NCBI GenBank assembly: GCA_013335175.1
Contig: JAAXWC010000004.1
Span: forward strand, 40,999-104,998
Length of the DNA stretch: 64,000 bases
DNA from: Candidatus Roizmanbacteria bacterium
GTDB lineage: Bacteria > Patescibacteriota > Microgenomatia > UBA1406 > GWC2-37-13
Reading direction: 5' to 3'
The number at the start of each line of letters is the position of its first letter. Position 1 is the stretch's first letter. The position numbers and the translations under genes are program-made. This document shows positions 35,636 through 61,404 of this stretch, in pieces. The notes beneath the pieces are model-generated. The model was not told where the DNA came from, searched no databases, and worked only from the letters and a program-made list of their open reading frames with translations.

Positions 35636-35998
35636 ACTTCTTCCCGGGAATCCATGTATTTAGTTTATTGTATAGATTCCCCCGGATCGGCGCAGTCCGG
35701 GGCAGGCTCCTCAGGACGGAATGACCTACAAAAAGAATGGGTGGCACGAGTCAGGGGTCTCACGCACTTTTGATGGTGGTGTAATGCTCAAACTCAAGTG
35801 CGTGGGAAAGACGAGTGGCAGGCCTCCATTCTTTTTGAAGGAGAGAGTATTGATCCACTGGATCCCCTCGTTCGAGGGGATGACGTAATGACCACTGTTA
35901 GGCCGCCATTCTTTTCGAAGCGTTGTTGAATTGAATAGATTCCGGATCACGCTCATTCCATTCGCTGTCCGGAATGACGACAGAAGGTTCTGGAACGA
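35636..35998. repeat. mosaic palindromic-repeat cluster including one ~110-nt composite element (35728..35840)
   Basis: Hairpin units (ATCCCCTCGttCGAGGGGAT; CATTCGCTGTCCGGAATGAC) plus the element AAAAAGAATGGGTGGCACGAGTCAGGGGTCTCAC...GGGAAAGACGAGTGGCAGGCCTCCATTCTTTTTGAAGG, also found at 36896..37004 and, inverted, at 45597..45708. Confidence 0.9.
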
Positions 35999-36002: not shown

Positions 36003-36752
36003 CTATTTCTTCCCCACAAGTTGTTTAAATCCTTCAAGAATCTCAACCGGGACCGCAAACACAACCGTATTTGCCGGATTTGAGGTAGAAGACTCGATCG
36101 TTTGTAAAGTACGCAAAGAAATCGCTCCGCTTTCTGTCAAAACCTTCATGGCCTGAGTTAAGTTCTGTGAGGCAGACAGTTCTCCCTGCGATCGAATGAT
36201 AGTCGCTCGTCGTTCACGTTCCGCTTCTGCTTGCTTTGCCATCACACGTTTCATATCTCCTGGAACCTCGATATCCTGAATTTTGATAGCGGTTACATCA
36301 ATACCCCAATCGGTGGTTTCACTATCTACAATCTGCTTTATTTCATCCGCTAATTTTTGTCGTTCTACCAACAATGTATCCAATTCTACCCCGCCGATTA
36401 CATCACGCAGTGCCGTTTGCGCATACTGTGTTATTGCATAGGTATAATCCTGAATTTTCAAAACAGCATCTTCTGGCCTTGTTACCTGAAAATATACCAC
36501 TGCGTTAATGCCAACGGGTACATTGTCCCGGGTAATTACTTCTTGCTGGGGAATATCTGCAGTACGAATACGAACATCCACCTTAATTGCTCGCTGAAAA
36601 ATGGGGACCAATAGCTTTAGCCCTGGTTGCAGGGTGTAAGAATATTTTCCCAGCGTAAGAACGATTCCCCGCTCATACTGATCAATAATAACCAACATTT
36701 TGAAAAAAAGCGCCACCCCGATAATTAAGAGTATCAAAATAACTATTTCCAT
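36003..36752 (-). CDS. SPFH/band-7 (stomatin/prohibitin-like) membrane protein
   Basis: N-terminal TM helix MEIVILILLIIGVALFF followed by an SPFH core (VDVRIRTADIPQQEVITRDNVPVGINAVVYFQV). The ORF-track N-terminal extension to 37028 is translated repeat DNA and was trimmed. Confidence 0.85.
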   Translation of the reverse strand: MEIVILILLIIGVALFFKMLVIIDQYERGIVLTLGKYSYTLQPGLKLLVPIFQRAIKVDVRIRTADIPQQEVITRDNVPVGINAVVYFQVTRPEDAVLKIQDYTYAITQYAQTALRDVIGGVELDTLLVERQKLADEIKQIVDSETTDWGIDVTAIKIQDIEVPGDMKRVMAKQAEAERERRATIIRSQGELSASQNLTQAMKVLTESGAISLRTLQTIESSTSNPANTVVFAVPVEILEGFKQLVGKK

Positions 36753-36895
36753 GAAAATATATAAACTTATATATACCTTTAATAGTAGGACGAAACGCAG
36801 CTTTGTCAAGGATATTTCTGTTAACCTCTTCCGGTCATTAAAGCTACGATACAAAGCACAGCACCTGGTTCGTAAGATTTTGGGTTCCGATAGAC

Positions 36896-37062
36896 ACAAA
36901 AAGAATGGGTGGCACGAGTCAGGGGTCTCACCCACTTGTGACGCGGGTGTTCTAGAAGTCAAGTGGGTGGGAAAGACGAGTGACAGGCCGCCGTTCTTTT
37001 TGAAACAATGATTCCACCGGATCGACATAAGGCCGGGGCAGGCTCCTCAGTCCGAAATGACG
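36896..37062. repeat. composite ~110-nt element (direct copy of 35728..35840) plus hairpin unit
   Basis: Near-identical ends AAAAAGAATGGGTGGCACGAGTCAGGGGTCTCAC and GGGAAAGACGAGTGACAGGCCGCCGTTCTTTTTGAA. Followed by GGGGCAGGCTCCTCAGTCCGAAATGAC, as at 35700. Confidence 0.9.
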
Positions 37063-42410: not shown

Positions 42411-42682
42411 ATAACAACGATTCCCGGCAAACCGGAATAACTCTACTCCCGTCATCCCCCTGAACAGATGGCTCAAGGAGTAAGTTCTTCACTGGATTCC
42501 TGTCGTCGCCTCCTGCGAGATCCCGCCAACGGCGGTGACGCTCTTAGGAATGACGAAAAAATGGGTGTCTGAGCTTAGGGCTCCCACACACCGCGTCAAA
42601 CGCGGCTTCGCGCGCAGAACTGGCGCTATGCCAGTCGAGCATGGGTGGGAAAAAGCGAATGACAGGCCTCCATTTTTTGAAC
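42411..42682. repeat. palindromic-repeat cluster with variant-B composite element (42556..42682)
   Basis: AACAACGATTCCCGG unit and GTCATCCCCC unit. GGGTGTCTGAGCTTAGGGCTCCC...GCTATGCCAGTCGAGCATGGGTGGGAAAAAGCGAATGACAGGCC recurs at 53074..53190. Confidence 0.9.
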
Positions 42683-42718
42683 CTGCTATTCAGTGATATT
42701 GTGAACAGAGTGAAGACT

Positions 42719-43522
42719 ATGAAAACATTAACGCTCATTATTCCCGTCTACAACGAAGGAGAACGTATCACGAATACGTTGCAAACTCTGGAAAAAGGGT
42801 TCTCGTTTCGTGGGCTCAAGCTCACCAAACTTATCTTTTTTAATGACGGTTCTACCGACAGTACTCTTTCGCTTCTGTACTCTTTTCGGAAAAAATTAGA
42901 AAAAATATTGAGGATTCCTATACAGATCGTGAGTTCACCCGATAATAGAGGTAGGGGCTTTGCAGTAATCCATAGCGCATTTCTCGCTGATACCGAATAC
43001 GTGCTGTATACCGACGCAGATTTTTCAATCCCGCTCTCAAATTTGTACACCTGCCTTCCGTCTGTACGCAACAACGTAGATCTTATTTTTGGCAGTAAAA
43101 AAATGCCGGGCGCAAAAGAATGTATCCCTCGCACATTGTTGCGAAAAATAGTAGGGTATGGTCATTCTTTGGTTGCTTCTGTGGTGTTTGGTATGTTCAT
43201 TTGGGACTTCCAAGGAGGGTTTAAACTGTTTTCGCGAAAATTCATTCAGGAACTCTTTCCCCTGTTGAAAATCGATCGATGGGGGTTCGACATGGAAGTA
43301 ATCTTTCTGGCGAAAAAATATAAGTTTTCTCATCAAGAGATTCCCGTTACCTGGAGCCATGTCGAAAACGGAAGCAAAGTAAAACTGCTCCGCGATAGCC
43401 TTCGGAGCCTTCAGGAAATGGCACGGATAACGTATGGTTGGCATACAGGAATGTACGCTCTCGACTCTTCTCATAAAAATCGCGCTTCTACATTAGTATC
43501 TCTTCTCAAACTCTATGAATAA
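42719..43522 (+). CDS. family 2 glycosyltransferase (polyprenyl-phosphate sugar transferase-like)
   Basis: IIPVYNEGERI, FNDGSTD and DADFS (DxD) motifs. Start set at MKTLTL (42719). The ORF-track extension is repeat DNA. Confidence 0.8.
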   Translation: MKTLTLIIPVYNEGERITNTLQTLEKGFSFRGLKLTKLIFFNDGSTDSTLSLLYSFRKKLEKILRIPIQIVSSPDNRGRGFAVIHSAFLADTEYVLYTDADFSIPLSNLYTCLPSVRNNVDLIFGSKKMPGAKECIPRTLLRKIVGYGHSLVASVVFGMFIWDFQGGFKLFSRKFIQELFPLLKIDRWGFDMEVIFLAKKYKFSHQEIPVTWSHVENGSKVKLLRDSLRSLQEMARITYGWHTGMYALDSSHKNRASTLVSLLKLYE

Positions 43523-44723: not shown

Positions 44724-45033
44724 CGTCATCCCCGACCTGCCTGCCCATCGAAGCCCTGGCGAAGTTGGGATCGGGGATCTATGTATTGTTTTATTGAATA
44801 GATTCCGGCATGTACGCCATGGTGGCGACAGCCATGCGGCATCGCAGGGTATGCCAGGGACCCGGACGTCACCCCTGCGAACGCAGGGGTCCAGAGGATC
44901 GATTACTACTGGAGTGATCGGTAATGCTGAAAAAGCAAGATACGATGTAATTAGTCCACTGGATTCCCCTGTTCAGGGGAATGACGAACATTGGTCATTC
45001 CGGCTTGCCCGGAATCGTTGTTAATGGAATTTG
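44724..45033. repeat. mosaic palindromic-repeat cluster
   Basis: Units GTCACCCCTGCgaacGCAGGGGTCCAG, GGATTCCCCTGttCAGGGGAATGAC and GTCATTCCGGcttgCCCGGAATCGTTGTT, plus a longer unit shared in inverted form with 45950..46050. Confidence 0.9.
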
Positions 45034-45089
45034 TTGGTTCAGTGACTTCGGCCCTAATTTGCAATGATAAAAATATATTTTCGTTCACA

Positions 45090-45416
45090 TTATTTATACA
45101 CCTTCTTTTTTTTATTATAGGAAGTTTTCTTTGTACCATATGCACTCTTTTTCTGTTCATCTTTCACTCTGTCGGCAATATATATTTTCATGAGTGATTG
45201 GTACGGAACATTCATCTTCCGCGCTTCAGATTTTATATCTTCCAATAAAGAAACGGGTAATCGAATACTAATTGTCTCCGTACTGAGTTTAAGGTTGGGA
45301 AATTCCATATGTACTGGCTTCCGTACATCGAAATACTCTGTAGTATTATGAGTTGCCCAAAACTCCCGTTCCTCACCTTCATTTTTGAACTTTGGTATTA
45401 CGTTTTTATTTTTCAT
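45090..45416 (-). CDS. CopG/RHH-type antitoxin (BrnA-like), no adjacent toxin gene
   Basis: EEREFWATHNTTEYFD...ISIRLPVSLLEDIKSEARKMNVPYQSLMKIYIADRV is typical of this antitoxin family. Start set at MKNKNV (45416). Confidence 0.65.
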   Translation of the reverse strand: MKNKNVIPKFKNEGEEREFWATHNTTEYFDVRKPVHMEFPNLKLSTETISIRLPVSLLEDIKSEARKMNVPYQSLMKIYIADRVKDEQKKSAYGTKKTSYNKKKKVYK

Positions 45417-45422
45417 TTGTAT

Positions 45423-45431
45423 ATTATGGCA
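45423..45431 (-). promoter_or_regulatory. extended -10 element (TGCCATAAT) 6 nt upstream of the antitoxin ATG
   Basis: The minus strand reads TTGACA-20 nt-CATAAT-atacaa-ATG with no Shine-Dalgarno, a leaderless-type arrangement. Confidence 0.4.
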
Positions 45432-45465
45432 ATATACAAAGTTACGATTGTCAAGAGCCACGTAA

Positions 45466-46070
45466 GTAATTATTCAGAAGTTTCCAAAGGCAGGCCATAG
45501 TTGTATTTTCTGTCATCCCCGACCTCTCTCCCGTCATCCCCGACCTCTCTCCCGTCATCCCCGCGAAGGCGGGGATCCAGTGGATCAATACTCTCTCCTT
45601 CAAAAAGAATGGCGGCCTGTCGCTCGTCTTTCCCACGCACTTGACTTCGAGCATCACACCATCGTCAAAAGTGCGTGAGACCCCTGACTCGTGCCACCCA
45701 TTCTTTTTTTTGGTTTGTTTGTCACTCCCGCTTGCCGGGAGTCGTTGTTACAGGTTAACATTGTCATTCTGGACTGAGGAGCCTGCCCCGAATTACGGGG
45801 CTCAAGGTTGTTATTCCGGCTCTCTCGTCATTCCCTCGAAGGAGGGAATCCATGGGAGGAGTCTGATGCAAGGGTCGGGATGGATCCCCGCCTACGCGAG
45901 GATGACGATGCAACGTCATTCCGGACAGCGAATGGAGTGAGCGTGATCCGGAATCTATACAATTCAACAATACATGGATCCCGGGTCCCTGGCATGCCCT
46001 GCGATGCCGCATGGCTGTCGCCGCCATGGCGTGCAAGCCCGGGATGACGTACATTAGTGAGGGATGACGG
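45466..46070. repeat. densest mosaic repeat cluster: 45-bp IR arm, 21-nt tandem half-units, inverted composite element, many hairpin units
   Basis: 45466..45510 is the exact reverse complement of 47777..47821. GTCATCCCCGACCTCTCTCCC occurs twice in tandem (45512..45553). The composite element lies inverted at 45597..45708. Units GTCACTCCCGcttgCCGGGAGTCGTTGTT and GTCATTCCCTCgaagGAGGGAATCC are also present. Confidence 0.9.
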
Positions 46071-46423: not shown

Positions 46424-46429
46424 CATCGT

Positions 46430-46840
46430 ATGTATTACCTTGATACCAATATATTTGTTCGAGCTCTCACGGGTGATGACGAAAAAAAGATGAAGCATTG
46501 TCAAGATTTGTTTCAAAAAATAGCTCAAAAAAAAGTAATAGCCACAACTTCAGAAACCGTTATCGCCGAGGTGGTGTATGTACTTTCCTCGAAAGTATTA
46601 AACTATGGATTCTCACGCAAAGAGATACGTGACCAGCTTGAAACACTGCTCATGCTGAACGGTTTCCGTTTTTCTCAAAAAGAAATGGTTATTCAAGCGT
46701 TGTATCTTTATGCAGAAAAAAACATTGATTTTTCCGATGCACTTCTTGCTCAGTATGCAATAAATTCTGAAGCAAACGGCGTGTACTCCTATAATACAGA
46801 CTTTGATAAAATACCTTCAGTAAAACGCAAAGTGCCATAA
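46430..46840 (+). CDS. vapC: PIN-domain ribonuclease toxin (VapC-like)
   Basis: N-terminal YYLDTNIFVR (first acidic PIN residue). 136 aa. Further acidic residues (SETVIAEV, DFSDALL, NTDFD). Confidence 0.8.
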   Translation: MYYLDTNIFVRALTGDDEKKMKHCQDLFQKIAQKKVIATTSETVIAEVVYVLSSKVLNYGFSRKEIRDQLETLLMLNGFRFSQKEMVIQALYLYAEKNIDFSDALLAQYAINSEANGVYSYNTDFDKIPSVKRKVP

Positions 46841-46911
46841 AAGAATCCCCGTTGTAGCATATAGTCCGTTGACTCCCCCACACTACAATCAAAAACAACG
46901 TCATCCTCGCG

Positions 46912-46920
46912 TGCTATAAT
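46912..46920 (+). promoter_or_regulatory. extended -10 promoter element TGCTATAAT, 8 nt upstream of the HEPN ATG
   Basis: TGnTATAAT consensus match with no Shine-Dalgarno before ATG 46929. Confidence 0.45.
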
Positions 46921-46928
46921 AGATATAA

Positions 46929-47261
46929 ATGAAAAAAGAAACAGAGGCTTGGTTAAATGTAGCAAAAGAAGATTATGCGGATATGCAGGTTATGATGCAG
47001 GCAAAACGATATCGAGGCGCTGTCTTTTTTGCACAACAGGCAGTTGAAAAAATCCTCAAAGGATATATCGCAGAATATACAAACACTGTACCCAAAAAAA
47101 CACATTTTATTGAAATTCTAATAAAAGATGCTAAATTAGAATTAGCAGAAATTGATAATCCAAATGTCGCAATACTTAGTAGTGCATATGCATGGGTCCG
47201 GTATTCAGATTTAAGCAATGAACATTTCAAAACAAAAAAAAATAACAAAAAAAAATATTGA
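46929..47261 (+). CDS. HEPN-domain protein, apparently frameshifted near the 3' end
   Basis: AKEDYADMQVMMQAKRYRGAVFFAQQAVEKILKGYI is a typical HEPN N-terminus. The expected C-terminal helix (EPLLVLAEQLYEWVQKKF) is encoded in another frame downstream of an A-rich tract (47229..47258). Confidence 0.6.
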   Translation: MKKETEAWLNVAKEDYADMQVMMQAKRYRGAVFFAQQAVEKILKGYIAEYTNTVPKKTHFIEILIKDAKLELAEIDNPNVAILSSAYAWVRYSDLSNEHFKTKKNNKKKY

Positions 47262-47294
47262 ACCATTATTAGTTCTTGCAGAACAACTCTACGA

Positions 47295-47615
47295 ATGGGT
47301 ACAGAAAAAATTCAAAGCTCAATAAAGATTTTTGTACAACGAGTACAAAAGAAATATAAGCCAAAAAAAGTGATCTTATTTGGTTCCTATGCTCGTGGTG
47401 AAGCAAATAGTTATAGTGATATCGATATTCTAGTAGTTGCCGATACATTCAAAGGAACTGAGCCATTTCAGCGAGTGTGTGATTTACACGATTTAGGAAA
47501 AGACCTTCAGCCAGACATTAATGCCTTCGGGTACACATCTACAGAATTAAAAGCAAATTCCTATAAGACAACTCTCCGTGATGCTCTTGCAACAGGAATT
47601 GAACTTACTGCATAA
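47295..47615 (+). CDS. nucleotidyltransferase-domain protein (MNT partner of HEPN)
   Basis: Pol-beta NTase motif VILFGSYARGEANSYSDIDILVV. Confidence 0.8.
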   Translation: MGTEKIQSSIKIFVQRVQKKYKPKKVILFGSYARGEANSYSDIDILVVADTFKGTEPFQRVCDLHDLGKDLQPDINAFGYTSTELKANSYKTTLRDALATGIELTA

Positions 47616-47621
47616 AAAAAC

Positions 47622-47821
47622 CCGTCATTCTCGAGCAAACGAACCCGGGCAAAGAGAAAACGCAACGTCAATCCTCCCCCACGATACAATACAAACCTAC
47701 GTCATCCTCCTGGACAGGAGGATCCAAGGGGTAATAAACATCCACACCATGGATCCCCGCCTTCGCGGGGATGACGGAAAATACAACTATGGCCTGCCTT
47801 TGGAAACTTCTGAATAATTAC
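47622..47821. repeat. 156-bp direct-repeat copy 1 (47622..47777) plus 45-bp IR arm (47777..47821)
   Basis: CCGTCATTCTCGAGCAAACGAACCCGGGCAAAGAGAAAACGCAACGTC ... GTCATCCTCCTGgaCAGGAGGATCCAAGGGGTAATAAACATCCACACCATGGATCCCCGCCTTCGCGGGGATGACGG. The same sequence occurs at 48376..48528. Confidence 0.95.
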
Positions 47822-47832
47822 AATTGTAGCCA

Positions 47833-47861
47833 TTGACATTCTACATACATTCTACTACAAT
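47833..47861 (+). promoter_or_regulatory. sigma70-type promoter TTGACA-17-TACAAT
   Basis: -35 TTGACA at 47833..47838, a 17-nt spacer, -10 TACAAT at 47856..47861. GTG 47868 lies 6 nt downstream with no SD, consistent with a leaderless transcript. Confidence 0.6.
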
Positions 47862-47867
47862 GTGTTT

Positions 47868-48038
47868 GTGAAGAAAATTAGCTGGAACGAAGAGAAAAAT
47901 GATCTGTTACGAAAAACGAGAAATGTATATTTTGAGTTGATAGAAGAAGCAATTATAAATGGAAACGTGCTTGATGTTGTTCAAATAAAAAAAACCGTTA
48001 ATAATTCCATTATGTACTATGAAAAAACAAACACATAA
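47868..48038 (+). pseudogene. truncated BrnT-like (DUF497-type) toxin remnant
   Basis: 56 codons. The N-terminus KKISWNEEKNDLLRKTRNVYFELIEEAI matches the BrnT pattern (W-[DN]-E-x-K-N-x3-L-x-K-x3-[VI]-x-F-E). It ends just after an A8 run at about two-thirds of the usual family length. Overlaps the antitoxin start by 20 nt. Confidence 0.5.
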
Positions 48039-48327
48039 CTATCAATTAGATCCCGAAGAGAAGCAACTAGTTGCTGATATAGAAAGCGGCAACTATCGGT
48101 CTATTCCCTATCTGGAAGAAGAAAAGAAACGCTATCAGTCGTATGCGCGATCTTCACAAGAACTACGAGCCGAAAATAGGAAAGATAAAAATATAAATAT
48201 ACGTATTTCTTCGGGTGATATTGAAAAAATTCAAGAGCGAGCTATCCAGAATGGCCTCCCCTACCACACCCTTATTTCCACGGTTCTGCACCAGTTCGCA
48301 AATGGGAAAATTGAAGTAAAGCTGTAA
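48019..48327 (+). CDS. CopG/RHH-type antitoxin
   Basis: DPEEKQLVADIESGNY...INIRISSGDIEKIQERAIQNGLPYHTLISTVLHQFANGKIEV is the typical C-terminal RHH antitoxin pattern. Confidence 0.65.
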   Translation: MKKQTHNYQLDPEEKQLVADIESGNYRSIPYLEEEKKRYQSYARSSQELRAENRKDKNINIRISSGDIEKIQERAIQNGLPYHTLISTVLHQFANGKIEVKL

Positions 48328-48375
48328 ATATCCTTCCTTTGTAGCACATATTTATTCAGCAATAAATCAAAAGCA

Positions 48376-48808
48376 CCGTCATTCTCGAGCAAACGAACCC
48401 GGGCAAAGAGAAAACGCAACGTCGTCTCGCGGAACTCCAATACAAGCCAACGTCATCCTCCTGTCCAGGAGGATCCAAGGGGTAATAAACATCCACACCA
48501 TGGATCCCCGCCTTCGCGGGGATGACGGGAGAGGTCGTGGCGATGACGGGAGAGGTCGGGGATGACGGGAGAGAGGTCGGGGATGACGAGCACGAACGTC
48601 ATTCCCGCGCACGCGGGAATCCAGCGGATCAATTACCTCTGAAGAAATCAGTAAAGCTGAAGAAAACATTCTTTTTATCTCGCTGTACTCCATAATCACA
48701 AAGTTGTCGATACTCTGGACCCCTGCGTTCGCAGGGGTGACGTTGCATTGTCATTCCGGCTTGCCCGGAATCTGCATTTCCCGGGCGGACGCGCATGTCC
48801 GCCCCTAC
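48376..48808. repeat. direct-repeat copy 2 (48376..48528), tandem half-units (about 48527..48587), further hairpin units
   Basis: Same ends as 47622..47777 but with the hairpin loop inverted (CTGtcCAG versus CTGgaCAG). GGGAGAGGTCGGGGATGAC-type units occur three times. GTCATTCCCGCgcacGCGGGAATCCAG, ACCCCTGCgttcGCAGGGGT, GTCATTCCGGcttgCCCGGAAT and GGCGGACgcgcatGTCCGCCCCTAC are also present. Confidence 0.9.
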
Positions 48809-48837
48809 TTGAAATTTTAATCCTTTTATGCTATACT
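48809..48837 (+). promoter_or_regulatory. sigma70-type promoter TTGAAA-17-TATACT
   Basis: -35 at 48809..48814, a 17-nt spacer, -10 at 48832..48837. About 265 nt upstream of the next SD-preceded start (49109). Confidence 0.55.
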
Positions 48838-49108
48838 ATGGGCCTTACATTAAAGGGAGAAAACTAGCTTTTCTTCTCCACGATGTACGCATTTACGGTG
48901 CCAAACGAAATCGCTTTCTACAAGCTAGAAAATCCGATTTCCCAAGCACTTTTACAACTGGGTTCAGATTTTAATAAACATAAACCAGTACTCATAAAAG
49001 AAATGGGTTGTGGGGATGAATCCTTTCCTCCCTAGAATCCATTTTCTTTTATTTGAGGAAAATTTTTTGTTTTTTATAACAGCGCGAAAGCGCAGAGGAG
49101 GTTTGGCC

Positions 49109-51478: not shown

Positions 51479-54400
51479 ATGCAGCGGATTTTGAATTTTC
51501 TTTCTTTTCACCGGTATCCCCTTTTTCTTTCCTTCATTGTTCTGATTCTTGGCATTGCGAATTATCATCCCGGAAGTTTTTTATCCGGGTGGGATAACAT
51601 ACAGACTGATCTGAATCCCTGGCTTGGGGTGAAGCGGGCGGTGTTTTCCGTGTGGGAGGAGTACCAAAGTTTTGGACTGGTTTCGGGTATGGCACATGCG
51701 GCCGATTTGGTCCGCGCGGTTTTTATCTGGATGCTTTCTTTTGTGCTTCCGCAGTCGTTTTTACGCTATTTTTTTCATGTTTTGATGTTAGGGGTGGGGA
51801 CGATGGGGATGTACTGGTTTTTGGTGTTTACCAGAGAACATTCGTGTCATTCTGGCAAGCGGAGCGCGTCCAGAATCGATAATCCTGGTCGATTCCCGAC
51901 AAGCGGGAATGACGAAAGGGGCGAGGATGACGACGCTACCCCTGATTCCGGACAAGCCGGAATGACTTTGCATTGTCATTCCCGCAAGCGAAGTATGAGC
52001 GCGTCGGGAATCGTTGTTAATCGTGCGGACACCTCGTCATTCCTCGGCGCGCTGTTCTACCTCCTCAACTTTGCCACGATCCAGATGTTTTACGTTCCCT
52101 TTGAAGCATTTTCCGTTTTTTCTGCCTTCCTCCCCTGGGAAATCTGGATTTTTATGAAACTCCTGGAACAGAAAAAATGGAGCCGAAAAGACGTGATTTT
52201 GTTTGTTGTGATTAACTTTCTCGCCACACCGCAGGCCTACGTCCAGACCCTGTTTATCGTCTACGGAGTGATGTTGGGGGTGGCAACAGTGACATTGACT
52301 TTCCATAGGAAACAAAAAGAACGGGTGACACGAGAATGGGGCATCCCCGTGCACGCGGAGCGGAAAGCGAGCATGTGCGGGGAGACTTCGAGTGGCAGGC
52401 CGCCGTTCTTTTTGAAGAAATGGATCCTGAATGGTACTCAATTGAATGGATCCCGGATCGGAGTCCGGGATGACAATTCAAGAAACAACGATTCCGGTCT
52501 TCGCCGGAATGACGGGCGGGAAAACCCCGCCCCTACATTTCAATTGTTAAAACGTTCCATCGCCCTATTTCTCCTCCTCTTTTCCATTAATGCCTTCTGG
52601 CTTTTACCCCAACTCTACTTTTTGAAAACCAACCAAAACGTCGTAACTGAGGCAAAATCCAACATGCTCGCTACCGAAGACGTCCTCTACCAAAATAAAG
52701 AAAAAGGAACCATTGATCAATTCATTCCCATGCGTGGTTTCTACTACGACTTATTTGATGCTGACCAAAAGCAGCTTTTTGAACCATGGAAACAACACTT
52801 TCAAAACCCTCTATTTGCCATACTCTCCTATCTGTTCGCGCTGATTTGGATCATCGGCATTTTTGCAAAAAGTAGATACCGTTGGACATTTCTCTCCCTC
52901 TTATTTGTGGTCGCCATTGCACTCTTAAATAACACTCCTCCCTTTTCCTGGATCAATGATTTCTTACGAAAAAATGAAATTGTGAATCAATTGTTTCGCT
53001 CGCCTTTTACCAAGTTTGCGATTCCCTATGCGTTTGTCGCCAGTTATTTTTTTGCAGTTGGAGTGGAAAGACTGCAAAACGGGTGTCTGAGCTTAGGGCT
53101 CCCGCGCACGCGGAGATCTGGCGCTATGCCAGTCGAGCATGGGTGGGAAAAAGCGAATGACAGGCCACCGTTTTGCATAAATTCAGAACAACGATTCCGG
53201 GCAAGCCGGAATGACGTACAGGCGGGCGGACACCTGGGTCCGCCCCTACGTAATTCCTCGGGCGGGAAGACCACGTCAAACGTGGCTGTTGCCCCGCCCC
53301 TACACAATCATGGATCCTCGATCAGGTCGAGGATGACGATGGTTTATTCGTCCATCGTTCAACATTCATCCTTAATCATTGTCATCGTGATAGTTCTCTC
53401 CGCTCTCCCCGCCTTTACCGGCAACTACTTCGCTCGCTCCATGCACGTATCAATTCCCAACGATTACCTCCAAGTGATGCAGTATCTGCAACATCAGGAT
53501 AAAAATAAACGCATTGCCCTCCTCCCAGACTACACCTTTTGGGGCTGGTTTTACACCCGCTGGGGCTACAACGGTTCGGGTTTTTTGTGGTACGGGATAG
53601 AACAACCAATTGTGTCTCGAACCTTCGATGTCTGGAGTGATAAAAGTGAAGGATATTTCTGGGAAATGAAAACGGCAATAGAATCCGAGCAAGTGCAAAA
53701 ATTCGATCAATTACTTGAAAAATATGATATTGATTATCTCATTTTAGATTACTCTCTTCTGCCTGTCAGTGCTTCGCTCAAAGGACTTCAGTACGAACGC
53801 ATTGAACGAATTTTAGCTCATTCAGAACACGTCTCGTTGGTACAAAAAGGAAAAAATGTACTTCTTTATCAAGTGATAAACAAAAAACCGGTGAAAAATT
53901 TTATCTCTCTGGCCACTGAACTTCCCAACATCGGCCCAACAATAAAACTGACAAACGACGACACCGCCTATACTTATTTTGGCGATTACAAAACTGATGC
54001 AACACAACCGTTTGATTACTACTTTCCGTATCTCGATCTTACAACACAAACACGTTTAAAACATAAATTATGGACTTTGAGTGAACAAGAGAACCAGTTT
54101 CGTATCTCTCAACCGTTACTGATCAATGCACAGGATTTTGAGCTGAAAGGGACTGTCACTTCAGCCGGGTATCAACTCTATCTCCAAAACGAAGTTCAAC
54201 AGTTCAAAAGCACCTTGTCCCACTCCATCGAAAACAACATGCTCGTCACCACGATAGCAAAAGAGCCTATTTATCAATTTGATGTAACCAATACATCGGT
54301 TCACAATTGCAGTCCTCTGGGAACTACGTCTCGCATAAATAGCAGTGATCTTACTGTTTCATCTACAAATCGTGCAATAGGTTGTTTTGGTTATGAAGCT

Positions 54401-55162
54401 CCCGCACTTGAGCAAAAAAATGGATATTTAGTAAAAATAGCATCGAAACTCAGAGAAGGACGCCCCTTATTTTTGTATATTTTAGACCAAACAAAACGGC
54501 AGGCGTTTCTTGAAGATCGTTTACTAAACTCTACAGAATACTTTATCTTAAGCCCTAAATACCAATATGGACTCGGATATAGTTTTAGTTTTAATAATAA
54601 TTCATATCACAATATTCCATCTACCAATACGCTCCAGGAATTATCGGTGTATCAATTCCCCTACGATCAATTGAAACAAACCTTTTTTGAGAGTAAGACA
54701 ACGCATCCAACGAACGCAAAATTTGCGTACACCATACCCGCAGAAAAATTGAACTATTACACCTATAAAGTAACCATCCCCGATCAAAAAATCAGTACCG
54801 TGATACTGAATCAATCTTTTCATCCTGGATGGACGGCCTTCGTCATTCCCGCTTGTCGGGAATCGACCCACGCCTTCCCTTTATCGATTCTGGACACGCT
54901 CGTTCCTCGCTGCCAGAATGACGTAAATCATGTCATCATCAACAACTGGGCAAACGGATGGACTATCCCTCAAGGGACAAAAGAGGTCGTCCTTATTTTC
55001 TGGCCTCAGTATTTGGAATACGTAGGATTTGGGGTACTCCTTCTCACCGTTATTATTGCAATTTTGCATTTCTCGCTTCATCAAGGTACAATGAGAGTAT
55101 GGTATTTATCTGGGACTACGATCGTAAAGAACTGGAAAAAACCGAAGAAGGACGCATTCTGA
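51479..55162 (+). CDS. large polytopic membrane protein, putative GT-C glycosyltransferase (AftD/DUF3367-like), carrying four in-frame repeat-element insertions
   Basis: Uninterrupted 1227-codon ORF. The N-terminus GWDNIQTDLNPWLGVKRAVFSVWEEYQSFG and many TM helices resemble arabinofuranosyltransferase-like GT-C proteins (by recall). Four segments are repeat-derived. Confidence 0.6.
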   Translation: MQRILNFLSFHRYPLFLSFIVLILGIANYHPGSFLSGWDNIQTDLNPWLGVKRAVFSVWEEYQSFGLVSGMAHAADLVRAVFIWMLSFVLPQSFLRYFFHVLMLGVGTMGMYWFLVFTREHSCHSGKRSASRIDNPGRFPTSGNDERGEDDDATPDSGQAGMTLHCHSRKRSMSASGIVVNRADTSSFLGALFYLLNFATIQMFYVPFEAFSVFSAFLPWEIWIFMKLLEQKKWSRKDVILFVVINFLATPQAYVQTLFIVYGVMLGVATVTLTFHRKQKERVTREWGIPVHAERKASMCGETSSGRPPFFLKKWILNGTQLNGSRIGVRDDNSRNNDSGLRRNDGRENPAPTFQLLKRSIALFLLLFSINAFWLLPQLYFLKTNQNVVTEAKSNMLATEDVLYQNKEKGTIDQFIPMRGFYYDLFDADQKQLFEPWKQHFQNPLFAILSYLFALIWIIGIFAKSRYRWTFLSLLFVVAIALLNNTPPFSWINDFLRKNEIVNQLFRSPFTKFAIPYAFVASYFFAVGVERLQNGCLSLGLPRTRRSGAMPVEHGWEKANDRPPFCINSEQRFRASRNDVQAGGHLGPPLRNSSGGKTTSNVAVAPPLHNHGSSIRSRMTMVYSSIVQHSSLIIVIVIVLSALPAFTGNYFARSMHVSIPNDYLQVMQYLQHQDKNKRIALLPDYTFWGWFYTRWGYNGSGFLWYGIEQPIVSRTFDVWSDKSEGYFWEMKTAIESEQVQKFDQLLEKYDIDYLILDYSLLPVSASLKGLQYERIERILAHSEHVSLVQKGKNVLLYQVINKKPVKNFISLATELPNIGPTIKLTNDDTAYTYFGDYKTDATQPFDYYFPYLDLTTQTRLKHKLWTLSEQENQFRISQPLLINAQDFELKGTVTSAGYQLYLQNEVQQFKSTLSHSIENNMLVTTIAKEPIYQFDVTNTSVHNCSPLGTTSRINSSDLTVSSTNRAIGCFGYEAPALEQKNGYLVKIASKLREGRPLFLYILDQTKRQAFLEDRLLNSTEYFILSPKYQYGLGYSFSFNNNSYHNIPSTNTLQELSVYQFPYDQLKQTFFESKTTHPTNAKFAYTIPAEKLNYYTYKVTIPDQKISTVILNQSFHPGWTAFVIPACRESTHAFPLSILDTLVPRCQNDVNHVIINNWANGWTIPQGTKEVVLIFWPQYLEYVGFGVLLLTVIIAILHFSLHQGTMRVWYLSGTTIVKNWKKPKKDAF
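51846..52022. repeat. in-frame palindromic repeat cluster 1 inside CDS 51479..55162
   Basis: GTCATTCTGG..CCAGAATCG, GATTCCCGacaaGCGGGAATGAC, GATTCCGGacaaGCCGGAATGAC and GTCATTCCCGC..CGGGAATCGTTGTT. Boundaries are approximate. Confidence 0.85.
52313..52537. repeat. in-frame repeat cluster 2 (diverged composite element plus hairpin units)
   Basis: AAAAAGAACGGGTGACACGAG...GAGTGGCAGGCCGCCGTTCTTTTTGAAG resembles 35728..35840. Followed by AACAACGATTCCGGtcttcGCCGGAATGAC and GGGCGGGaaaaCCCCGCCCCTAC. Confidence 0.85.
53074..53338. repeat. in-frame repeat cluster 3 (variant-B composite element plus hairpin units)
   Basis: 53074..53190 is nearly identical to intergenic 42556..42682. Followed by AACAACGATTCCGGgcaaGCCGGAATGAC, GGCGGACacctgggTCCGCCCCTAC and GGATCCTCGatcaggtCGAGGATGAC. 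Confidence 0.9.
54842..54923. repeat. in-frame repeat cluster 4
   Basis: GTCATTCCCGcttgtCGGGAATCG and GATTCTGG..CCAGAATGAC. This splits the conserved-looking FHPGWTAF / NHVIINNWANGW. Confidence 0.85.
55064..55092 (+). promoter_or_regulatory. sigma70-type promoter TTGCAT-17-TACAAT embedded in the 3' end of the large gene
   Basis: -35 at 55064..55069, a 17-nt spacer, -10 at 55087..55092. ATG 55099 lies 6 nt downstream with no SD. Confidence 0.5.
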
Positions 55163-55305
55163 TCCTTGAACGGATGATAAACTATGGCCCGGGTGATGAA
55201 AAAATTCCCCTTGATCAGGTAAAAAAGTATTGGGATCGATTACACCTTCAAAAACCTCAACAACGATTATTAGAATTACTAATATGGAACCAATATCAAT
55301 CCTAA
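55099..55305 (+). CDS. small protein, putative antitoxin partner of the AbiEii-like toxin
   Basis: 68 aa. The pattern WDYDRKELEKTEEGRILILERMINYGPGDE...W recalls small proteins found upstream of AbiEii-type genes. Overlaps the toxin start by 22 nt and the end of the large gene by 64 nt. Confidence 0.4.
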   Translation: MVFIWDYDRKELEKTEEGRILILERMINYGPGDEKIPLDQVKKYWDRLHLQKPQQRLLELLIWNQYQS

Positions 55306-55940
55306 CGGAGAAACACAAGATTATTCTGAACCTTGTCTCTCAGGAGCCCGAACTCGTGAAATCATTTTATTTTACTGGCGGGACCGCTCTTACTGAGTTT
55401 TATTTACATCACCGCTATTCTGAAGACCTCGATTTTTTCAGCAAAACTCCTCTCGAGAATCAATACTTGTCAGTAAAAATGCATGAATGGAGCGAACAGT
55501 ATCAATTCACCTTCCAATCACGATTTATAGAAGTGGTGTACATTTTCAACCTCACATTCGCTGATGGAGAACAACTCAAAGTTGACTTCGGTTATTACCC
55601 GTACAAACAACTGGAGAAAGGGACTACCTATAAGTCAATTCCTGTTGATAGTGAGCTCGACATTGCTATAAACAAACTCAATACCATATCGCAGCGAACT
55701 GAAATAAAAGATTTTGTGGATTTATATTTTCTGTTACAGAAATACTCTGTATATGATTTGATGGAAGGAGTTAAGGTAAAATTTCAGGTAAAAGTCGAGC
55801 CTTTTTTATTGGCAGCCGATATGCTAAAAGTTGAAGATTTTACCTACCTTCCTCGCATGGTTACTCCGCTTCCTCTTGATACGCTCAAAGATTATTACAG
55901 AAAACAGGCGCGTGCGTTCGGTCTCAGGACAATAATCTGA
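55284..55940 (+). CDS. nucleotidyltransferase AbiEii/AbiGii-family toxin (DUF1814-like)
   Basis: FYFTGGTALTEFYLHHRYSEDLDFF is the family signature. Start set at MEPISIL (55284). Confidence 0.75.
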   Translation: MEPISILTEKHKIILNLVSQEPELVKSFYFTGGTALTEFYLHHRYSEDLDFFSKTPLENQYLSVKMHEWSEQYQFTFQSRFIEVVYIFNLTFADGEQLKVDFGYYPYKQLEKGTTYKSIPVDSELDIAINKLNTISQRTEIKDFVDLYFLLQKYSVYDLMEGVKVKFQVKVEPFLLAADMLKVEDFTYLPRMVTPLPLDTLKDYYRKQARAFGLRTII

Positions 55941-55953
55941 AAAATGCTCTATA

Positions 55954-58131
55954 ATGGTGTATATGAAGCAGAGCTTAAGCTTTTTACAGATAAAAAATCC
56001 AAAAGATGATGAAACTCCTATCGAAGCCGCTACTCAGATTTTCTCATCGGTGCTTCCCTATCCTTACGTCCCTTTGTGGAAAAGACCTTTTGTAAAGCCT
56101 CAAACTTATTCTTTTGAACTCTATCTCCTTAATCAGACCATTTTTTTCTACGTTACTACTCCTTCAAAAAATGAAACCTTTATACGAAGCCTCATTACCT
56201 CTGCCTTTCCAAAGTCGGCTATTCAGAAAACTACCGATCCTATGGATATTATTTTTCAATCAAAACGACTCGCTATAGGTGAGGTTTCCCTTAATTCGTA
56301 TTTCTATTTTCCGATAAAAACCTATTACGACTTTCGCGACATTGACCCACTTTCCCCCATTATCGGTTTTTTGGCAAAACAGGATCCTGCCATTCGCATG
56401 GCTGTTCAAATCTTGGTGACGCCCGCAACTTTTGCCTGGCAAGATAAAGCCGTAGAAGCGGTAAAGGTACAATCTCTCGATACTACTTCTGGCCGATACG
56501 GACAAAACCCACATCGACAGATTCTGATGAAAAAAGCTTCGTTTCAAGGCGGGAAAGCCCTTATTCGTTTGATCGCCGGTTCAAACAACGAGCACCTTCC
56601 CTCGCTCCCCTATTTGCAAAACTTGGCTGGGACATTCGGGACTTTTTCTTTAGGTGAAGGGAACCAACTGGTTTTTAAACGACGATTCTTTTTCCCCGAA
56701 CGTCTCAAACAACGAATTAAAACCCGATCCACCCATTATTTTGAGAGAAAGTATCAGATTCTTAATTCTCAGGAACTCGCATCGCTGTGGCATCCTCCCG
56801 GATTTTTGCTTTCGGGAATTAAAAATATCGCTTGGGGGAAAACACTCTCTGGAGAACCACCCGAAAATTTGCCCATTGCCGATAACCTGACAGATCTTCA
56901 AAAACAGGATATAAATTTTTTTGCTGAGACAGAGTATAAAAATAAAAAAACAAAATTTGGAATTAAAACACCTGATCGACGAAAACACATGTACATTATC
57001 GGAAAAACGGGTGCTGGGAAATCTACCCTTATCGCCAATATGGCCATTGATGATATCCGAAAAGACCGTGGTATCGGCATTATTGATCCTCACGGGGACC
57101 TGTGCGAAACCATTCTGAATTACATCCCCAAACGTCGCATGAACGATGTGGTGTATCTTGAACCTTTTGATACCGAACACCCTTTCTCGCTCAATGTGCT
57201 CGAAATAAAAAACAAACAACATAAAGATCTGATCGCTTCTGGTATTGTCTCTATCTTCAACAAACTTTACAAAGATAGCTGGGGGCCCCGTCTAGAGTAC
57301 ATTCTACGTAACGTTATCTTGACCCTTTTGGAAATACCGGATTCTACCTTAGTAGATGTACTATCTCTTCTCTCCAACGCAGATTATCGAAAAAAAATGG
57401 TTGCATATGTTGAAGATCCGGTGCTGAGAAATTTCTGGTTGAAAGAATTTGACCGCATGCCCGACCGACTCCGCGCTGAAGCGATTTCACCGATTCAAAA
57501 TAAAGTTGGACAGTTCGTATCTTCAAAAATGATACGGAATATTATTGGAAAACCTCGATCGTCTATTAACTTAGAACAGATTATGAATGAAGGAAAAATT
57601 CTCATTCTGAATTTATCGCAAGGAAAGTTAGGAGAAGACAATGCCGCCTTACTGGGGGCAATGATGATTACGCAGATTCAACTTGCAGCTATGAACCGTT
57701 CGTTTATACACGAAAATGATCGCCGCGATTTTTTCCTGTATGTCGATGAATTTCAGAATTTTGCTACCTCTTCGTTCGTTAAAATCTTGTCGGAAGCACG
57801 AAAATATCGACTTTCCCTCACCCTTGCCAATCAGTATATTGAGCAACTAGACTTAGAAGTTCAGCGCGCCATATTTGGGAACGTTGGCACTTTGATGGCT
57901 TTTGTGGTTGGAGCACGGGATGCCTATCCTTTGAGCAAGGAATTTGGAGAACTGTACTCAGAGAACGACCTTGTTTCTTTAGGAAAACACGAAGTAGTGA
58001 CCAAGCTTTCTATTGAGAATATGACGTCCGCACCTTTCCCTGCGAATACACTTCCTCTTCCCAATATAGTAAATGATAACCGAGAAAAGATTATCCGACT
58101 CTCCAAAGAAAAATACGGAAGAAAGGTTTGA
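55954..58131 (+). CDS. FtsK/HerA/VirD4-like P-loop ATPase (T4SS coupling-protein-like, DNA-binding)
   Basis: Walker A IIGKTGAGKSTL, Walker B FFLYVDEFQNF, C-terminal TraD/TraG-like region. Alternative start MKQSLS at 55963. Confidence 0.65.
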   Translation: MVYMKQSLSFLQIKNPKDDETPIEAATQIFSSVLPYPYVPLWKRPFVKPQTYSFELYLLNQTIFFYVTTPSKNETFIRSLITSAFPKSAIQKTTDPMDIIFQSKRLAIGEVSLNSYFYFPIKTYYDFRDIDPLSPIIGFLAKQDPAIRMAVQILVTPATFAWQDKAVEAVKVQSLDTTSGRYGQNPHRQILMKKASFQGGKALIRLIAGSNNEHLPSLPYLQNLAGTFGTFSLGEGNQLVFKRRFFFPERLKQRIKTRSTHYFERKYQILNSQELASLWHPPGFLLSGIKNIAWGKTLSGEPPENLPIADNLTDLQKQDINFFAETEYKNKKTKFGIKTPDRRKHMYIIGKTGAGKSTLIANMAIDDIRKDRGIGIIDPHGDLCETILNYIPKRRMNDVVYLEPFDTEHPFSLNVLEIKNKQHKDLIASGIVSIFNKLYKDSWGPRLEYILRNVILTLLEIPDSTLVDVLSLLSNADYRKKMVAYVEDPVLRNFWLKEFDRMPDRLRAEAISPIQNKVGQFVSSKMIRNIIGKPRSSINLEQIMNEGKILILNLSQGKLGEDNAALLGAMMITQIQLAAMNRSFIHENDRRDFFLYVDEFQNFATSSFVKILSEARKYRLSLTLANQYIEQLDLEVQRAIFGNVGTLMAFVVGARDAYPLSKEFGELYSENDLVSLGKHEVVTKLSIENMTSAPFPANTLPLPNIVNDNREKIIRLSKEKYGRKV

Positions 58132-58155
58132 TGTTTATCACTGAGTGTTCCCACC

Positions 58156-58285
58156 CGTCACTCCCGCGAAGGCGGGGATCCATGATATGCGGATATTACC
58201 CATTGGATCCTCGTGGCCACGAGGATGACGTGCAGGATCCTGCACCTTGCCTACCGTCAAGTAGGTTGCTGTCCGGGATGACATA
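58156..58285. repeat. palindromic hairpin units between convergent genes
   Basis: GTCACTCCCGCgaagGCGGGGATCC, GGATCCTCGtggccaCGAGGATGAC, CAGGATCCTG and a GGGATGAC unit. Confidence 0.85.
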
Positions 58286-58403
58286 TACCTGAAGCGTGAT
58301 GGCCTTGTTCGGAGTGACTTGGGAGATGCGCAGGAACGAGCACGCCCATTTGTCACGAAGAATCAAGAAGACACGCGATAGGATATGATTTTGACAATGA
58401 TGG

Positions 58404-58655
58404 TTACTTCATAAACGGCAAAAATCGACGAAGCCTCCCCATAACTATACTCCCTACAATTGGTATGACAATACTTAGCCACCACATTGTTTTTTTCCGT
58501 TCCGCTAACGATTGTACTGCTGTACCCACCTTCACTCGCGTATCCACAATTTGGTTTTTGAGCCAAACGAGGAAAAATAAGACCGACAGTACGAGTACGA
58601 TCCACAGCGACATATAGATAATCCCCACGAGATAAAAGAGTGTTTGTATATCCAT
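58404..58655 (-). CDS. small two/three-TM membrane protein (paralogue of 59198..59440)
   Basis: MDIQTLFYLVGIIYM... compared with MDLQTLFYIVGIVFM... Same length class and same position relative to a YtxH-like gene. Confidence 0.55.
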   Translation of the reverse strand: MDIQTLFYLVGIIYMSLWIVLVLSVLFFLVWLKNQIVDTRVKVGTAVQSLAERKKTMWWLSIVIPIVGSIVMGRLRRFLPFMK

Positions 58656-58663
58656 ACGCTCTT

Positions 58664-59107
58664 TTATAAACCAGTAACGCGTTCCGCCTCATTTTTCATA
58701 TCGCGGACGCCTCGCATAATATCTCGCTCCTTACTCAAAATCTCCTTGCGCATCTGATCGAGCTTATGTTTATTTGATTCCTCGTTTTTTTTCTGCCACT
58801 CCGAAATCGAATCGTCCAAAGTATGTCGAAAAGCACGATCATCTACCTGCTCATTTCGAGACCGCATGTCCTGTAAACGACCCTTCACGTCTGAAATAAG
58901 CTGAAAAGACGGCATTCCATTTCCCAGTTCTCCCTTCATTTTATGCATACGCTTTTGCATCTGCTCCATCGCCTCTTTCATTGTTTTTCTATTCCCTTCC
59001 CCGGTTTTTGGAGAGGTCAAAAGAGCAACTACGCCCCCAACAAGAGCACCGATAAGAATACCCGCGCTAAAAGAAGGAGCTTGATTATGATTGTTGTAGT
59101 CTCCCAT
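58664..59107 (-). CDS. YtxH-like protein
   Basis: GILIGALVGGVVALLTSPKTGEGNRKTMKE is a YtxH-type N-terminus. Start set at MGDYNNH (59107). Confidence 0.65.
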   Translation of the reverse strand: MGDYNNHNQAPSFSAGILIGALVGGVVALLTSPKTGEGNRKTMKEAMEQMQKRMHKMKGELGNGMPSFQLISDVKGRLQDMRSRNEQVDDRAFRHTLDDSISEWQKKNEESNKHKLDQMRKEILSKERDIMRGVRDMKNEAERVTGL

Positions 59108-59197
59108 AATAAAACAGTAACTAATAATAGGTAGTTTATTTATACCCAGCATTCTGTAAAGAAGCACGAAAAAGGAGTAAGAGAGAGGTAAGGAATG

Positions 59198-59440
59198 TTA
59201 TCTATTTTTTCGGAATATTTTTTTCACCAACGGAATGAGAATGTTTTTCACTAACAAACCCGTGGTAAAAACTGAGCTTGAATTTGCAGCCAGGGAGATT
59301 ACTTTTGCAGTTACCGATTCCTTTGCATGACGAATTCCTTGAACTAAGGCTACTATAAAAACGACACAAAACACCATAACGAGAATGGATAAAAGCATGA
59401 ACACAATCCCGACGATGTAAAAAAGTGTTTGTAGATCCAT
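59198..59440 (-). CDS. small membrane protein (paralogue of 58404..58655)
   Basis: See 58404..58655. Confidence 0.55.
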   Translation of the reverse strand: MDLQTLFYIVGIVFMLLSILVMVFCVVFIVALVQGIRHAKESVTAKVISLAANSSSVFTTGLLVKNILIPLVKKIFRKNR

Positions 59441-59447
59441 AATAATG

Positions 59448-59876
59448 TTATGTTTTTTTCGTTTTCTTCAGTTCTTCCCATTGGTCCACAAAATAGTCTT
59501 GCAACTGTTTTATTTTGGGAAGGGAAGCTTTTGCTTCCTCTGTTACCTGGGCTAAAGTATCTCCCACAAGCTGTACAAACTCTTCTCGATCCATATCCTT
59601 TGAAACTTTTTGCACCTCTTTCATTTTTTCTGAAAGCCGAACCCGAGCTGCTTCATAAAGCTTTGTACCTTCCTCTGTTACATCACCAAAAATAACCTTT
59701 GTTTTTTTCTCAACTTCATGTTCTTCAAGCATTTTAAGAAATTCTTCATATTTCTTTTTTACCAGTTCTTTGTTCTCTTTCCCCGATTGCGGAGTAAGAA
59801 ACAAAGCGGCAAGCGCGCCTGCGGTTGCACCAATAAGCAATCCTATCCCGAATTTAGATGATTTTTGAGTAGACAT
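59448..59876 (-). CDS. YtxH-like protein
   Basis: GLLIGATAGALAALFLTPQSGKENKELVKK followed by a helical charged C-terminus. Confidence 0.65.
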   Translation of the reverse strand: MSTQKSSKFGIGLLIGATAGALAALFLTPQSGKENKELVKKKYEEFLKMLEEHEVEKKTKVIFGDVTEEGTKLYEAARVRLSEKMKEVQKVSKDMDREEFVQLVGDTLAQVTEEAKASLPKIKQLQDYFVDQWEELKKTKKT

Positions 59877-59924
59877 ATGGAATCATTGTACTACATTTCA
59901 TAATTTTAAAATACCATTTGAAAT

Positions 59925-60003
59925 TTTCCCGTCATCGAGATCGCTATGCACGAACAACGATTCCCGACGCGGCACTTCCGTTCCTTGCGGGAATGACAAT
60001 CAT
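59925..60003. repeat. hairpin units
   Basis: CCGTCATCGAGATCG.. and AACAACGATTCCCGacgcggcacttccgttccttGCGGGAATGAC. Confidence 0.75.
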
Positions 60004-60013
60004 GTTCTATTGT

Positions 60014-61360: not shown

Positions 61361-61404
61361 GCCGCTATTTTACACTTTGTTGATGAATGGGACAAGAGAA
61401 TTTC

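Follow-up and report, generated by a model that had tools for sequence, protein, structure and literature searches.

How can a bacterial gene take up the repeats that fill the spacers of its own genome and still encode one continuous protein? This question is raised by a 64,000-nt stretch of DNA from a Candidatus Roizmanbacteria bacterium, an ultra-small member of the Candidate Phyla Radiation (CPR; Patescibacteria, Microgenomates; contig JAAXWC010000004.1, hereafter the window, G+C ~40%), in which the open reading frame (ORF) 51479..55162 (+) contains four blocks of sequence resembling intergenic repeats. A first-pass annotation of the window had reported this frame to be free of stops, and this holds, as it runs uninterrupted for 1227 codons and its product is identical to the NCBI entry 'hypothetical protein HGA88_02325 [Candidatus Roizmanbacteria bacterium]'. 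The analysis below points to a working gene for an AftD-like GT-C membrane glycosyltransferase that selfish spacer repeats would have colonised four times, and we consider it likely that such repeats survive in a functional host gene only where they are in frame, free of stops and placed in permissive loops.

If the four blocks are indeed built from the intergenic repeats of the window, the same units will be found on both sides of the gene boundaries. Using a finder for hairpins in which GTCAY precedes an 8-nt arm, a 3–30 nt loop and the complementary arm, we detected 36 hairpin units in the window, compared with 1–7 in shuffled sequences. Eleven of them lie inside the host gene (51846–52011, 52450–52513, 53194–53337 and 54842–54922), which makes up 5.8% of the window, and the other 25, arranged in 12 clusters, are all intergenic. 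Counted as clusters (n = 16), 12 are intergenic, four are in the host gene and none falls in the rest of the ORF-covered sequence (82% of the window), which bears out the claim that the in-gene stretches consist of the window's spacer repeats. The units can be sorted into class A (CGTCATCCCCGCGAAGGCGGGGATCCAK), class B (GTCATTCCSGCTTGYCSGGAATCG) and class C, the last having the same ends with a 12–21-nt loop between them. Their stems are 8–11 bp long, so that an inverted-repeat search at a minimum length of 16 misses them, and differ among copies in a compensated manner (CCCCGCG/CGCGGGG, CCTCCTG/CAGGAGG, TCCGGC/GCCGGA).

A second component is a module of ~100–125 nt that has the terminal inverted repeats, small size and several dispersed copies of a MITE (miniature inverted-repeat transposable element). 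Its six copies in the window are 98–125 nt long and have their termini in common (AAAAGAATGGGTGGC ... GGCCNCCATTCTTTT), the left end being AAAAGAATGGGTGGC and the right end, read as its reverse complement, AAAAGAATGG(A/C)GGCC. Four copies are intergenic, namely the Y-type reference at 35731..35835 (+), further copies at 36899..37000 (+) and 45603..45707 (–), and the X-type reference at 42555..42679 (+) in the 5′ leader of a GT2 glycosyltransferase gene; the other two lie in the host gene at 52315–52412 and ~53073–53174. Both resemblances proposed earlier for the in-gene copies were recovered. The stretch around 53074–53190 had been likened to intergenic 42556–42682, and 53065–53174 aligns to 42547–42676 with 84% identity over 45 nt and 94% over 66 nt, separated by a 20-nt indel. 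The stretch 52313–52424 had been likened to 35728–35840, and the copy at 52315–52412 belongs to the same MITE-like family as 35731–35835 and 36899–37000, with common terminal repeats and 73% identity over 49 nt. No transposase was noticed in the window, where no search was aimed at one. The third component is a GC-rich hairpin ending in CCGCCCCTAC (CCCCTAC), found at 48782, 52514, 53223 and 53259.

In the host gene these components are joined into mosaics of 84–264 nt, reminiscent of the mosaic elements known as NIMEs (neisserial intergenic mosaic elements) and BIMEs (bacterial interspersed mosaic elements). Insert 1 (51842..52021, +; residues 122–181) comprises four units, 51846–51876 (+), 51892–51913 (–), 51945–51966 (–) and 51975–52011 (+), of which the tail-to-tail pair 51945/51975 is arranged like the intergenic pairs 44963/44994 and 48719/48750. 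Insert 2 (52316..52537, +; residues 280–353) combines the MITE-like copy 52315–52412 with a unit at 52446–52475 (–), a unit at 52491–52513 (–) and a GC hairpin at 52514–52536 with the CCCCTAC end. Insert 3 (53078..53341, +; residues 534–621) consists of the MITE-like copy ~53073–53174, which carries a 20-nt deletion relative to its 84–94% identical intergenic counterpart (42547–42676), a unit at 53194–53215 (–), GC hairpins at 53223–53249 and 53259–53303 and a unit at 53314–53337 (–). Insert 4 (54842..54925, +; residues 1122–1149) is a pair of inverted units, 54842–54863 (+) and 54887–54922 (–), with a 23-nt spacer. The inserts have a G+C of 54–59% compared with 41.6% for the core of the gene, and together they encode ~250 of the 1227 residues (~20%). 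What had been described as four independent insertions are in fact four mosaics, each put together from two to five modules.

To place these blocks on the protein we aligned it with 15, and then 53, orthologues. The database search returned 541 matches (the query and ~540 homologues), nearly all from CPR bins and 910–1010 residues long, the best being 47% identical to the window protein. Inserts 1–3 are absent from the aligned orthologues, the inserted residues being not conserved there but simply missing. At site 1 the window protein has 79 residues against an orthologue median of 20 (+59), at site 2 104 against 30 (+74) and at site 3 130 against 48 (+82). Site 4, with 36 residues against a median of 29 and a range of 14–44, shows no clean net insertion. 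This length variation indicates that FHPGWTAF and NHVIINNW, taken at first for the halves of a single split motif, are the two edges of a variable linker. The site 4 loop of several orthologues (P0003, P0005, P0013, P0020 and P0026) holds other low-complexity, repeat-like peptides (NSKFKIQN, NVTCNMKHVTCRIQ, VKCHPFGKTQDDPERSRTGQMSNVKC), whose source may be another CPR repeat family with a higher A+T content.

The suggestion that a long ORF of this kind could be a chance read-through of spacers between separate genes is answered by the orthologues, which are single collinear genes of ~950–1000 aa. In the window and in two orthologous loci (L001 and L002) the gene order is the same, with a GT1 glycosyltransferase gene, this gene, toxin-antitoxin genes and a gene for a TrwB/TraD-like ATPase, which argues that the ORF is one gene. 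That the length of each insert is a multiple of three, which had been put forward as a check, follows automatically from homologous flanks in the same frame and is a tautology rather than a test. The informative property is the absence of stops. The frame in use is the sole stop-free forward frame in inserts 1–3, unlike single units, which are open in four to five of the six frames. By our rough estimate the joint chance that four neutral insertions would be both in frame and open is ~3e-4, the pattern left when selection keeps the product intact and only compatible inserts survive, which is one of the two readings offered earlier for the preserved frame. In every MITE-like copy, including the intergenic ones, one frame stays open and ends in ...(G/D)RPPFF..., the frame that the host gene reads; as the copies share a common ancestry, this is weak evidence for adaptation. 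If the host gene were decaying, its core would be expected to diverge. Instead every family-invariant residue is kept in the window protein, and its mean identity to the 53 orthologues is 46.1%, compared with 45.1% among the orthologues themselves (rank 21 of 54), so that there is no sign of decay.

The fold of the host protein was modelled with AlphaFold2 for residues 1–1200, using the orthologue alignment (mean predicted local distance difference test score, pLDDT, 81.6; predicted template modelling score, pTM, 0.84). The model has 11 transmembrane (TM) helices followed by a large, beta-rich domain on the outside and a last TM helix. Its top Foldseek match is mycobacterial AftD (6W98, E = 1.2e-15), followed by STT3 of the oligosaccharyltransferase and DPY19. 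Like the arabinofuranosyltransferase AftD it combines a GT-C membrane domain with a large extracytoplasmic domain of carbohydrate-binding type, differing from it in that the sequences are only 9–10% identical and the match to Pfam PF11847 (GT-C_AftD) remains below threshold (12.6 bits against a cut-off of 26); PF11847 is present in the precomputed annotation of a few homologues. From the ORF, the model, the fold search and the weak Pfam match we assign 51479..55162 (+) to an AftD-like GT-C glycosyltransferase of 1227 aa, the GT-C fold being apparent in the model and the activity being presumed from it. An invariant G37-W38-D39 lies in the first outside loop (residues 29–72), and its conserved acidic residue probably has a catalytic role.

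Regions of pLDDT below 50 coincide with the inserts (131–179, 292–343, 546–613 and 1129–1135), apart from two stretches of 3–4 residues, the stretch of insert 4 otherwise scoring 54–69. We derived the topology from the model helices with strict alternation of sides, placing the first loop with the invariant GWD outside and applying the positive-inside rule. The net charge of the orthologue loops agrees with this orientation (229–238, +1.9; 461–469, +2.8; site 3 loop, +1.7; first loop, –1.1), and sites 1–3 share a membrane side with the K/R-rich loops 231–239 and 463–467. Inserts 1–3 are thus predicted to lie in TM-connecting loops on the cytoplasmic face that span 3–11 residues in orthologues, and insert 4 within the outside soluble domain, immediately before the last TM helix, in a variable surface loop. 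If the topology is right, inserts 1–3 are opposite the GT-C active site, which would explain their tolerance. They are most likely translated as disordered loops.

What kind of repeat is this? The class A hairpin belongs to a family that a 2025 paper introduced under the names Neisseria Transformation Sequence (NTS, including dRS3) and, for the broader group, Ssn-related motifs (SRM) (PMC11893778). The published degenerate SRM motif, HGTCWYN(0-2)YYVSBRHN(0-5)WNVSBRGN(0-2)RNCYNB, matches 10 times in the window, compared with 0.1 on average and never more than 1 in dinucleotide-preserving shuffles, and the intergenic unit 48597..48624 (+) fits the strict Neisseria NTS consensus CGTCATTCCCGCGMAVGCGGGAATCYRG exactly (PMC11893778). 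The likeness to the Neisseria system, which includes the mosaic NIMEs (Nat Commun 2025, PMC11893778), extends to the GTCAT flank, the ATYCC...GGRAT stem with its free centre, the orientation and the clustering of units in intergenic mosaics. It ends at the class B and C units (GTCATTCCSGCTTGYCSGGAATCG and the long-loop forms), which do not fit the SRM motif (among the 11 in-gene units, just 52446–52475 does), and at the ssnA-like GIY-YIG gene, which a motif scan of the window did not find. Ssn is a small single-domain GIY-YIG nuclease (cd10448) whose gene is typically flanked by repeats (PMC11893778). We therefore describe the units as belonging in part to the NTS/SRM family, and otherwise resembling it.

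Identical copies of the 24-nt class B unit GTCATTCCSGCTTGYCSGGAATCG turn up, among the matches listed (L003–L118), in metagenome-assembled genomes (MAGs) from a wide range of phyla, among them Nitrospirota/Thermodesulfovibrionia, Magnetominusculus, Gemmatimonadota, Calditrichota, Fibrobacterota (Fibrobacteria), Deferribacteres and Peribacteria, which suggests a hairpin family outside the published SRM motif that is shared or transferred across phyla. About 1–2 of 128 class B copies among the matches listed fall in a plausible gene, the clearest being a GT1 gene of Roizmanbacteria RIFCSPLOWO2_01_FULL_35_13 (L054, 3181–4344, +) with in-frame units that read ...NRHSGEFAELGGRLQNRSFEQRFRTSRNDES....

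If permissive loops are what allows the repeats to persist, other members of the family should carry them at corresponding positions. Peptides of the NTS-type units (RLRGND, RFRGND, FARND etc.) occur in 7 of the 120 family members listed, one of them the window protein itself, compared with ~1.3 in shuffled proteins, and map to site 1, loop 231–239, site 2 and site 3. At the DNA level, site 1 of L001 (NCBI GCA_964543535.1) contains CTGGATCCCCGCCTCCGCGGGAATGAC in frame. L002 (JGI 3300047586) has at site 1 an SRM-matching, NTS-like unit that departs from the strict NTS consensus at the first base only, and repeats a ~100-nt composite of an NTS unit and CCACTTCGCCCTTCGGGCTTCGAGGGGCAAGC at sites 1 and 3 in the same frame. 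A GT2 gene of L001 (19138–20118, –) likewise contains in-frame units (...SSFAKASEDKQ...VIPAEAGIQ...). All in-frame cases found here are in glycosyltransferase genes, which may reflect only where the search went. Searching the database with the insert peptides joined into one query gave no match, not even to the parent protein, and is uninformative on the frequency of same-frame copies. As other CPR orthologues have been struck independently, mostly in the same loops, the family provides a natural map of the permissive sites of a GT-C enzyme.

In this behaviour the inserts appear to work like the Rickettsia palindromic elements (RPEs), selfish palindromic repeats found in Rickettsia spacers and in frame in unrelated coding genes (Ogata et al. 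2000, summarised in PMC10969869). The parallel, drawn already in the first-pass annotation, is apt as a description of how the repeats behave, namely spacer and in-frame copies, insertion compatible with the fold and an open frame of the element's own, and we extend it to behaviour and not to family membership. RPEs are single elements of ~100–150 bp from defined Rickettsia families, whereas here mosaics of 22–40-nt units and a ~100–125-nt MITE-like module occur four to a gene, add ~250 aa and reside in a CPR host. The repetitive extragenic palindromic sequences (REP) and BIMEs of Enterobacteria and Pseudomonas, with their REP-associated tyrosine (RAYT) transposases, are similarly short, GC-rich extragenic hairpins that form mosaics and are kept out of coding DNA, but they are of another sequence family, REPs are essentially never translated and no Y1 transposase was noticed in the window. 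Closer to the MITE-like module are the bacterial MITEs found in frame (the enterobacterial repetitive intergenic consensus, ERIC, Coxiella QMITE1 and those of Anabaena; PMC10969869, PMC3184786), which are small, non-autonomous, bounded by terminal inverted repeats and able to join an ORF of their own to one of the host. These are usually single events, whereas here the same loops of one protein family are struck repeatedly across lineages.

Some of the hairpin units thus match a published family, NTS/SRM. The first-pass annotation knew of no description of in-frame insertion for this repeat family or this type of organism, and in the literature we found RPEs and scattered in-frame MITEs and no report for CPR bacteria or for in-frame NTS/SRM units; in PMC11893778 we found no passage on in-frame copies, and the word 'intragenic' is absent there. 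What appears to be new is an RPE-like mode of insertion in another phylum (CPR, Roizmanbacteria) by another repeat family, which its sequence ties to the NTS/Ssn hairpins.

These observations suggest the following course of events. Repeats that land in coding DNA would normally be lost, consistent with the lack of units in any other gene of the window. The in-gene copies would persist where the frame is kept, the frame read is free of stops and the extra peptide is harmless at its site, the harmless sites being three short loops of presumed cytoplasmic location (inserts 1–3) and an already variable surface loop (insert 4). The blocks would then be transcribed and translated into ~250 residues of hydrophilic, disordered loop. 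The units may have been moved by an Ssn-type GIY-YIG single-strand nuclease or by recombination.

Several points weigh against this reading. Four clusters in one gene, and none elsewhere under ORFs, could mean that constraint on the host gene is relaxed. At 47% identity to the nearest orthologue, insertion boundaries, empty sites and dN/dS are out of reach. As RNA, the inserts fold at approximately –0.40 kcal/mol per nt (z of –4.2 to –4.7 for inserts 1–3 and –2.4 for insert 4), the remainder of the gene at –0.18, and a weak terminator-like site is predicted at the right end of insert 2's MITE-like copy; either feature could impair expression. Class B and C units, the majority of the in-gene copies, lie outside the published SRM motif, and a regular-expression scan of six frames of the window and 118 fetched loci found no Ssn-type GIY-YIG ORF, a weak negative. 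Taken together, the clusters, the strong RNA hairpins and the terminator-like end would fit a host gene that was recently inactivated or is under relaxed constraint, in which repeats accumulate as they do in spacers and the frame has stayed open by luck or for want of time. We regard this as quite improbable, as 1227 codons without a stop or frameshift, the sole open forward frame being the one used in inserts 1–3, family-average conservation of the core with its invariant residues kept, and orthologues elsewhere whose corresponding loops accommodate inserts of this kind all argue for a gene in use.

The converse explanation, that the inserts have been recruited, whether as disordered cytoplasmic loops for interaction or regulation, as mRNA structure that tunes expression or as NTS-like sites through which an Ssn-type nuclease limits replacement of an envelope-glycan gene by transforming DNA (a role proposed in Neisseria), is in our view unlikely. 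It would account for the same loops being struck in several lineages with a recurring frame (...DSRLRGND...) and for the open frame that the MITE-like element keeps even in intergenic copies. NTS repeats do modulate transformation in Neisseria (PMC11893778), and glycosyltransferase genes and repeats abound in the neighbourhood. Yet neither the sequence nor the length of the inserts is conserved among orthologues, nor is their presence, survivorship in permissive loops accounts for the recurrence equally well and, as noted, the motif scan found no Ssn gene. Misassembly of a metagenomic bin could also have put spacer repeats into a gene, and the source is indeed a MAG. An independent Logan assembly of SRR11449211 (L119) covers 53308–64000 of the window at 100% identity. 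Its end at 53308 falls within insert 3, at the class A unit 53314–53337, indicating that the repeats fragment short-read assemblies of this genome. The same assembly reproduces insert 4 without a mismatch, and for that part of the gene answers the earlier concern about an artefact. Every insert is a mosaic of its own, flanked on both sides by sequence that runs collinear and in frame with the orthologues, and orthologues from unrelated assemblies (GCA_964543535.1 and JGI 3300047586) present the same phenomenon, which makes misassembly very improbable. Least credible is removal of the inserts before the mature protein is formed, as by an intron or intein. CPR bacteria are known for insertions in their rRNA genes, and beyond this nothing direct favours it. 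Rfam at gathering thresholds returned one tRNA and, within the host gene, neither an intron nor any other RNA family, by which introns and structured-RNA families are set aside. The intein reading was rejected on size and repeat-derived composition, as the inserts are low-complexity segments of 28–88 aa with no intein blocks, built from the same units as the spacers.

Insertion by selfish repeats that survive in permissive loops is thus the explanation that we retain, and with four mosaics, 11 units and ~20% of the protein this gene is an extreme case of it. It offers a handle on the spread of mobile hairpins through genomes in which spacer DNA is nearly absent, and the pattern across CPR orthologues is reproducible and could become a genome-wide test. 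Repeat-encoded peptides also inflate and distort CPR protein annotations, and the repeats break assemblies. A broader proposition, which we find doubtful, is that the NTS/SRM-type hairpins of CPR bacteria and their MITE-like partners have evolved to be compatible with translation through a preferred frame that yields hydrophilic peptides (...DSRLRGND..., ...RPPFF...) and systematically colonise cytoplasmic loops of envelope enzymes. If true, they would be a general, undescribed source of disordered segments and of growth in protein length in CPR bacteria, and might double as Ssn-type recombination-control sites in surface-glycan genes.

Two further ORFs were considered as carriers of in-frame insertions and rejected. 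MITE-like copies lie directly upstream of the GT2 gene (42555–42679) and of an SPFH/Band 7 gene (36899–37000), and the ORFs 42641..43522 and 36003..37028, as called mechanically, start inside them. The true starts are downstream of the copies (MKTLTLIIPVYNE... for 42641..43522, and MEIVILILL..., preceding the SPFH domain, for 36003..37028), which makes both of them leader copies. ORF calling from inside such leaders could give false, repeat-encoded N-terminal extensions in automatic annotation.

The largest intergenic mosaic of the window (44868..45954, strand unassigned) contains nine units and a MITE-like copy and, together with 47612–48808, flanks toxin-antitoxin genes. It is part of a 4-kb island (44700–49000) with almost no ordinary genes, in which toxin-antitoxin pairs sit within dense repeat mosaics (MazE/PIN, 46163–46840; HEPN/nucleotidyltransferase, 46929–47615; CopG-like, 45090–45461 and 48019–48327). 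A block of ~170 nt occurs there twice, at 47612–47777 and 48366–48528, 751–754 nt apart, and brackets one toxin-antitoxin pair; this repeat-gene-repeat layout at 47612–48528 is similar to the NTS-ssnA-NTS arrangement known from Ssn genes. At the right end of the window, the Logan contig L119 continues for another 1447 nt into a Fic-domain gene. Finally, at 29391–29925, a region of locally positive GC skew, a 157-nt unit is repeated 3.4 times in tandem (94% matches), and its last, partial copy enters the 5′ end of a tRNA-Leu(CAA) gene (29909–29992).

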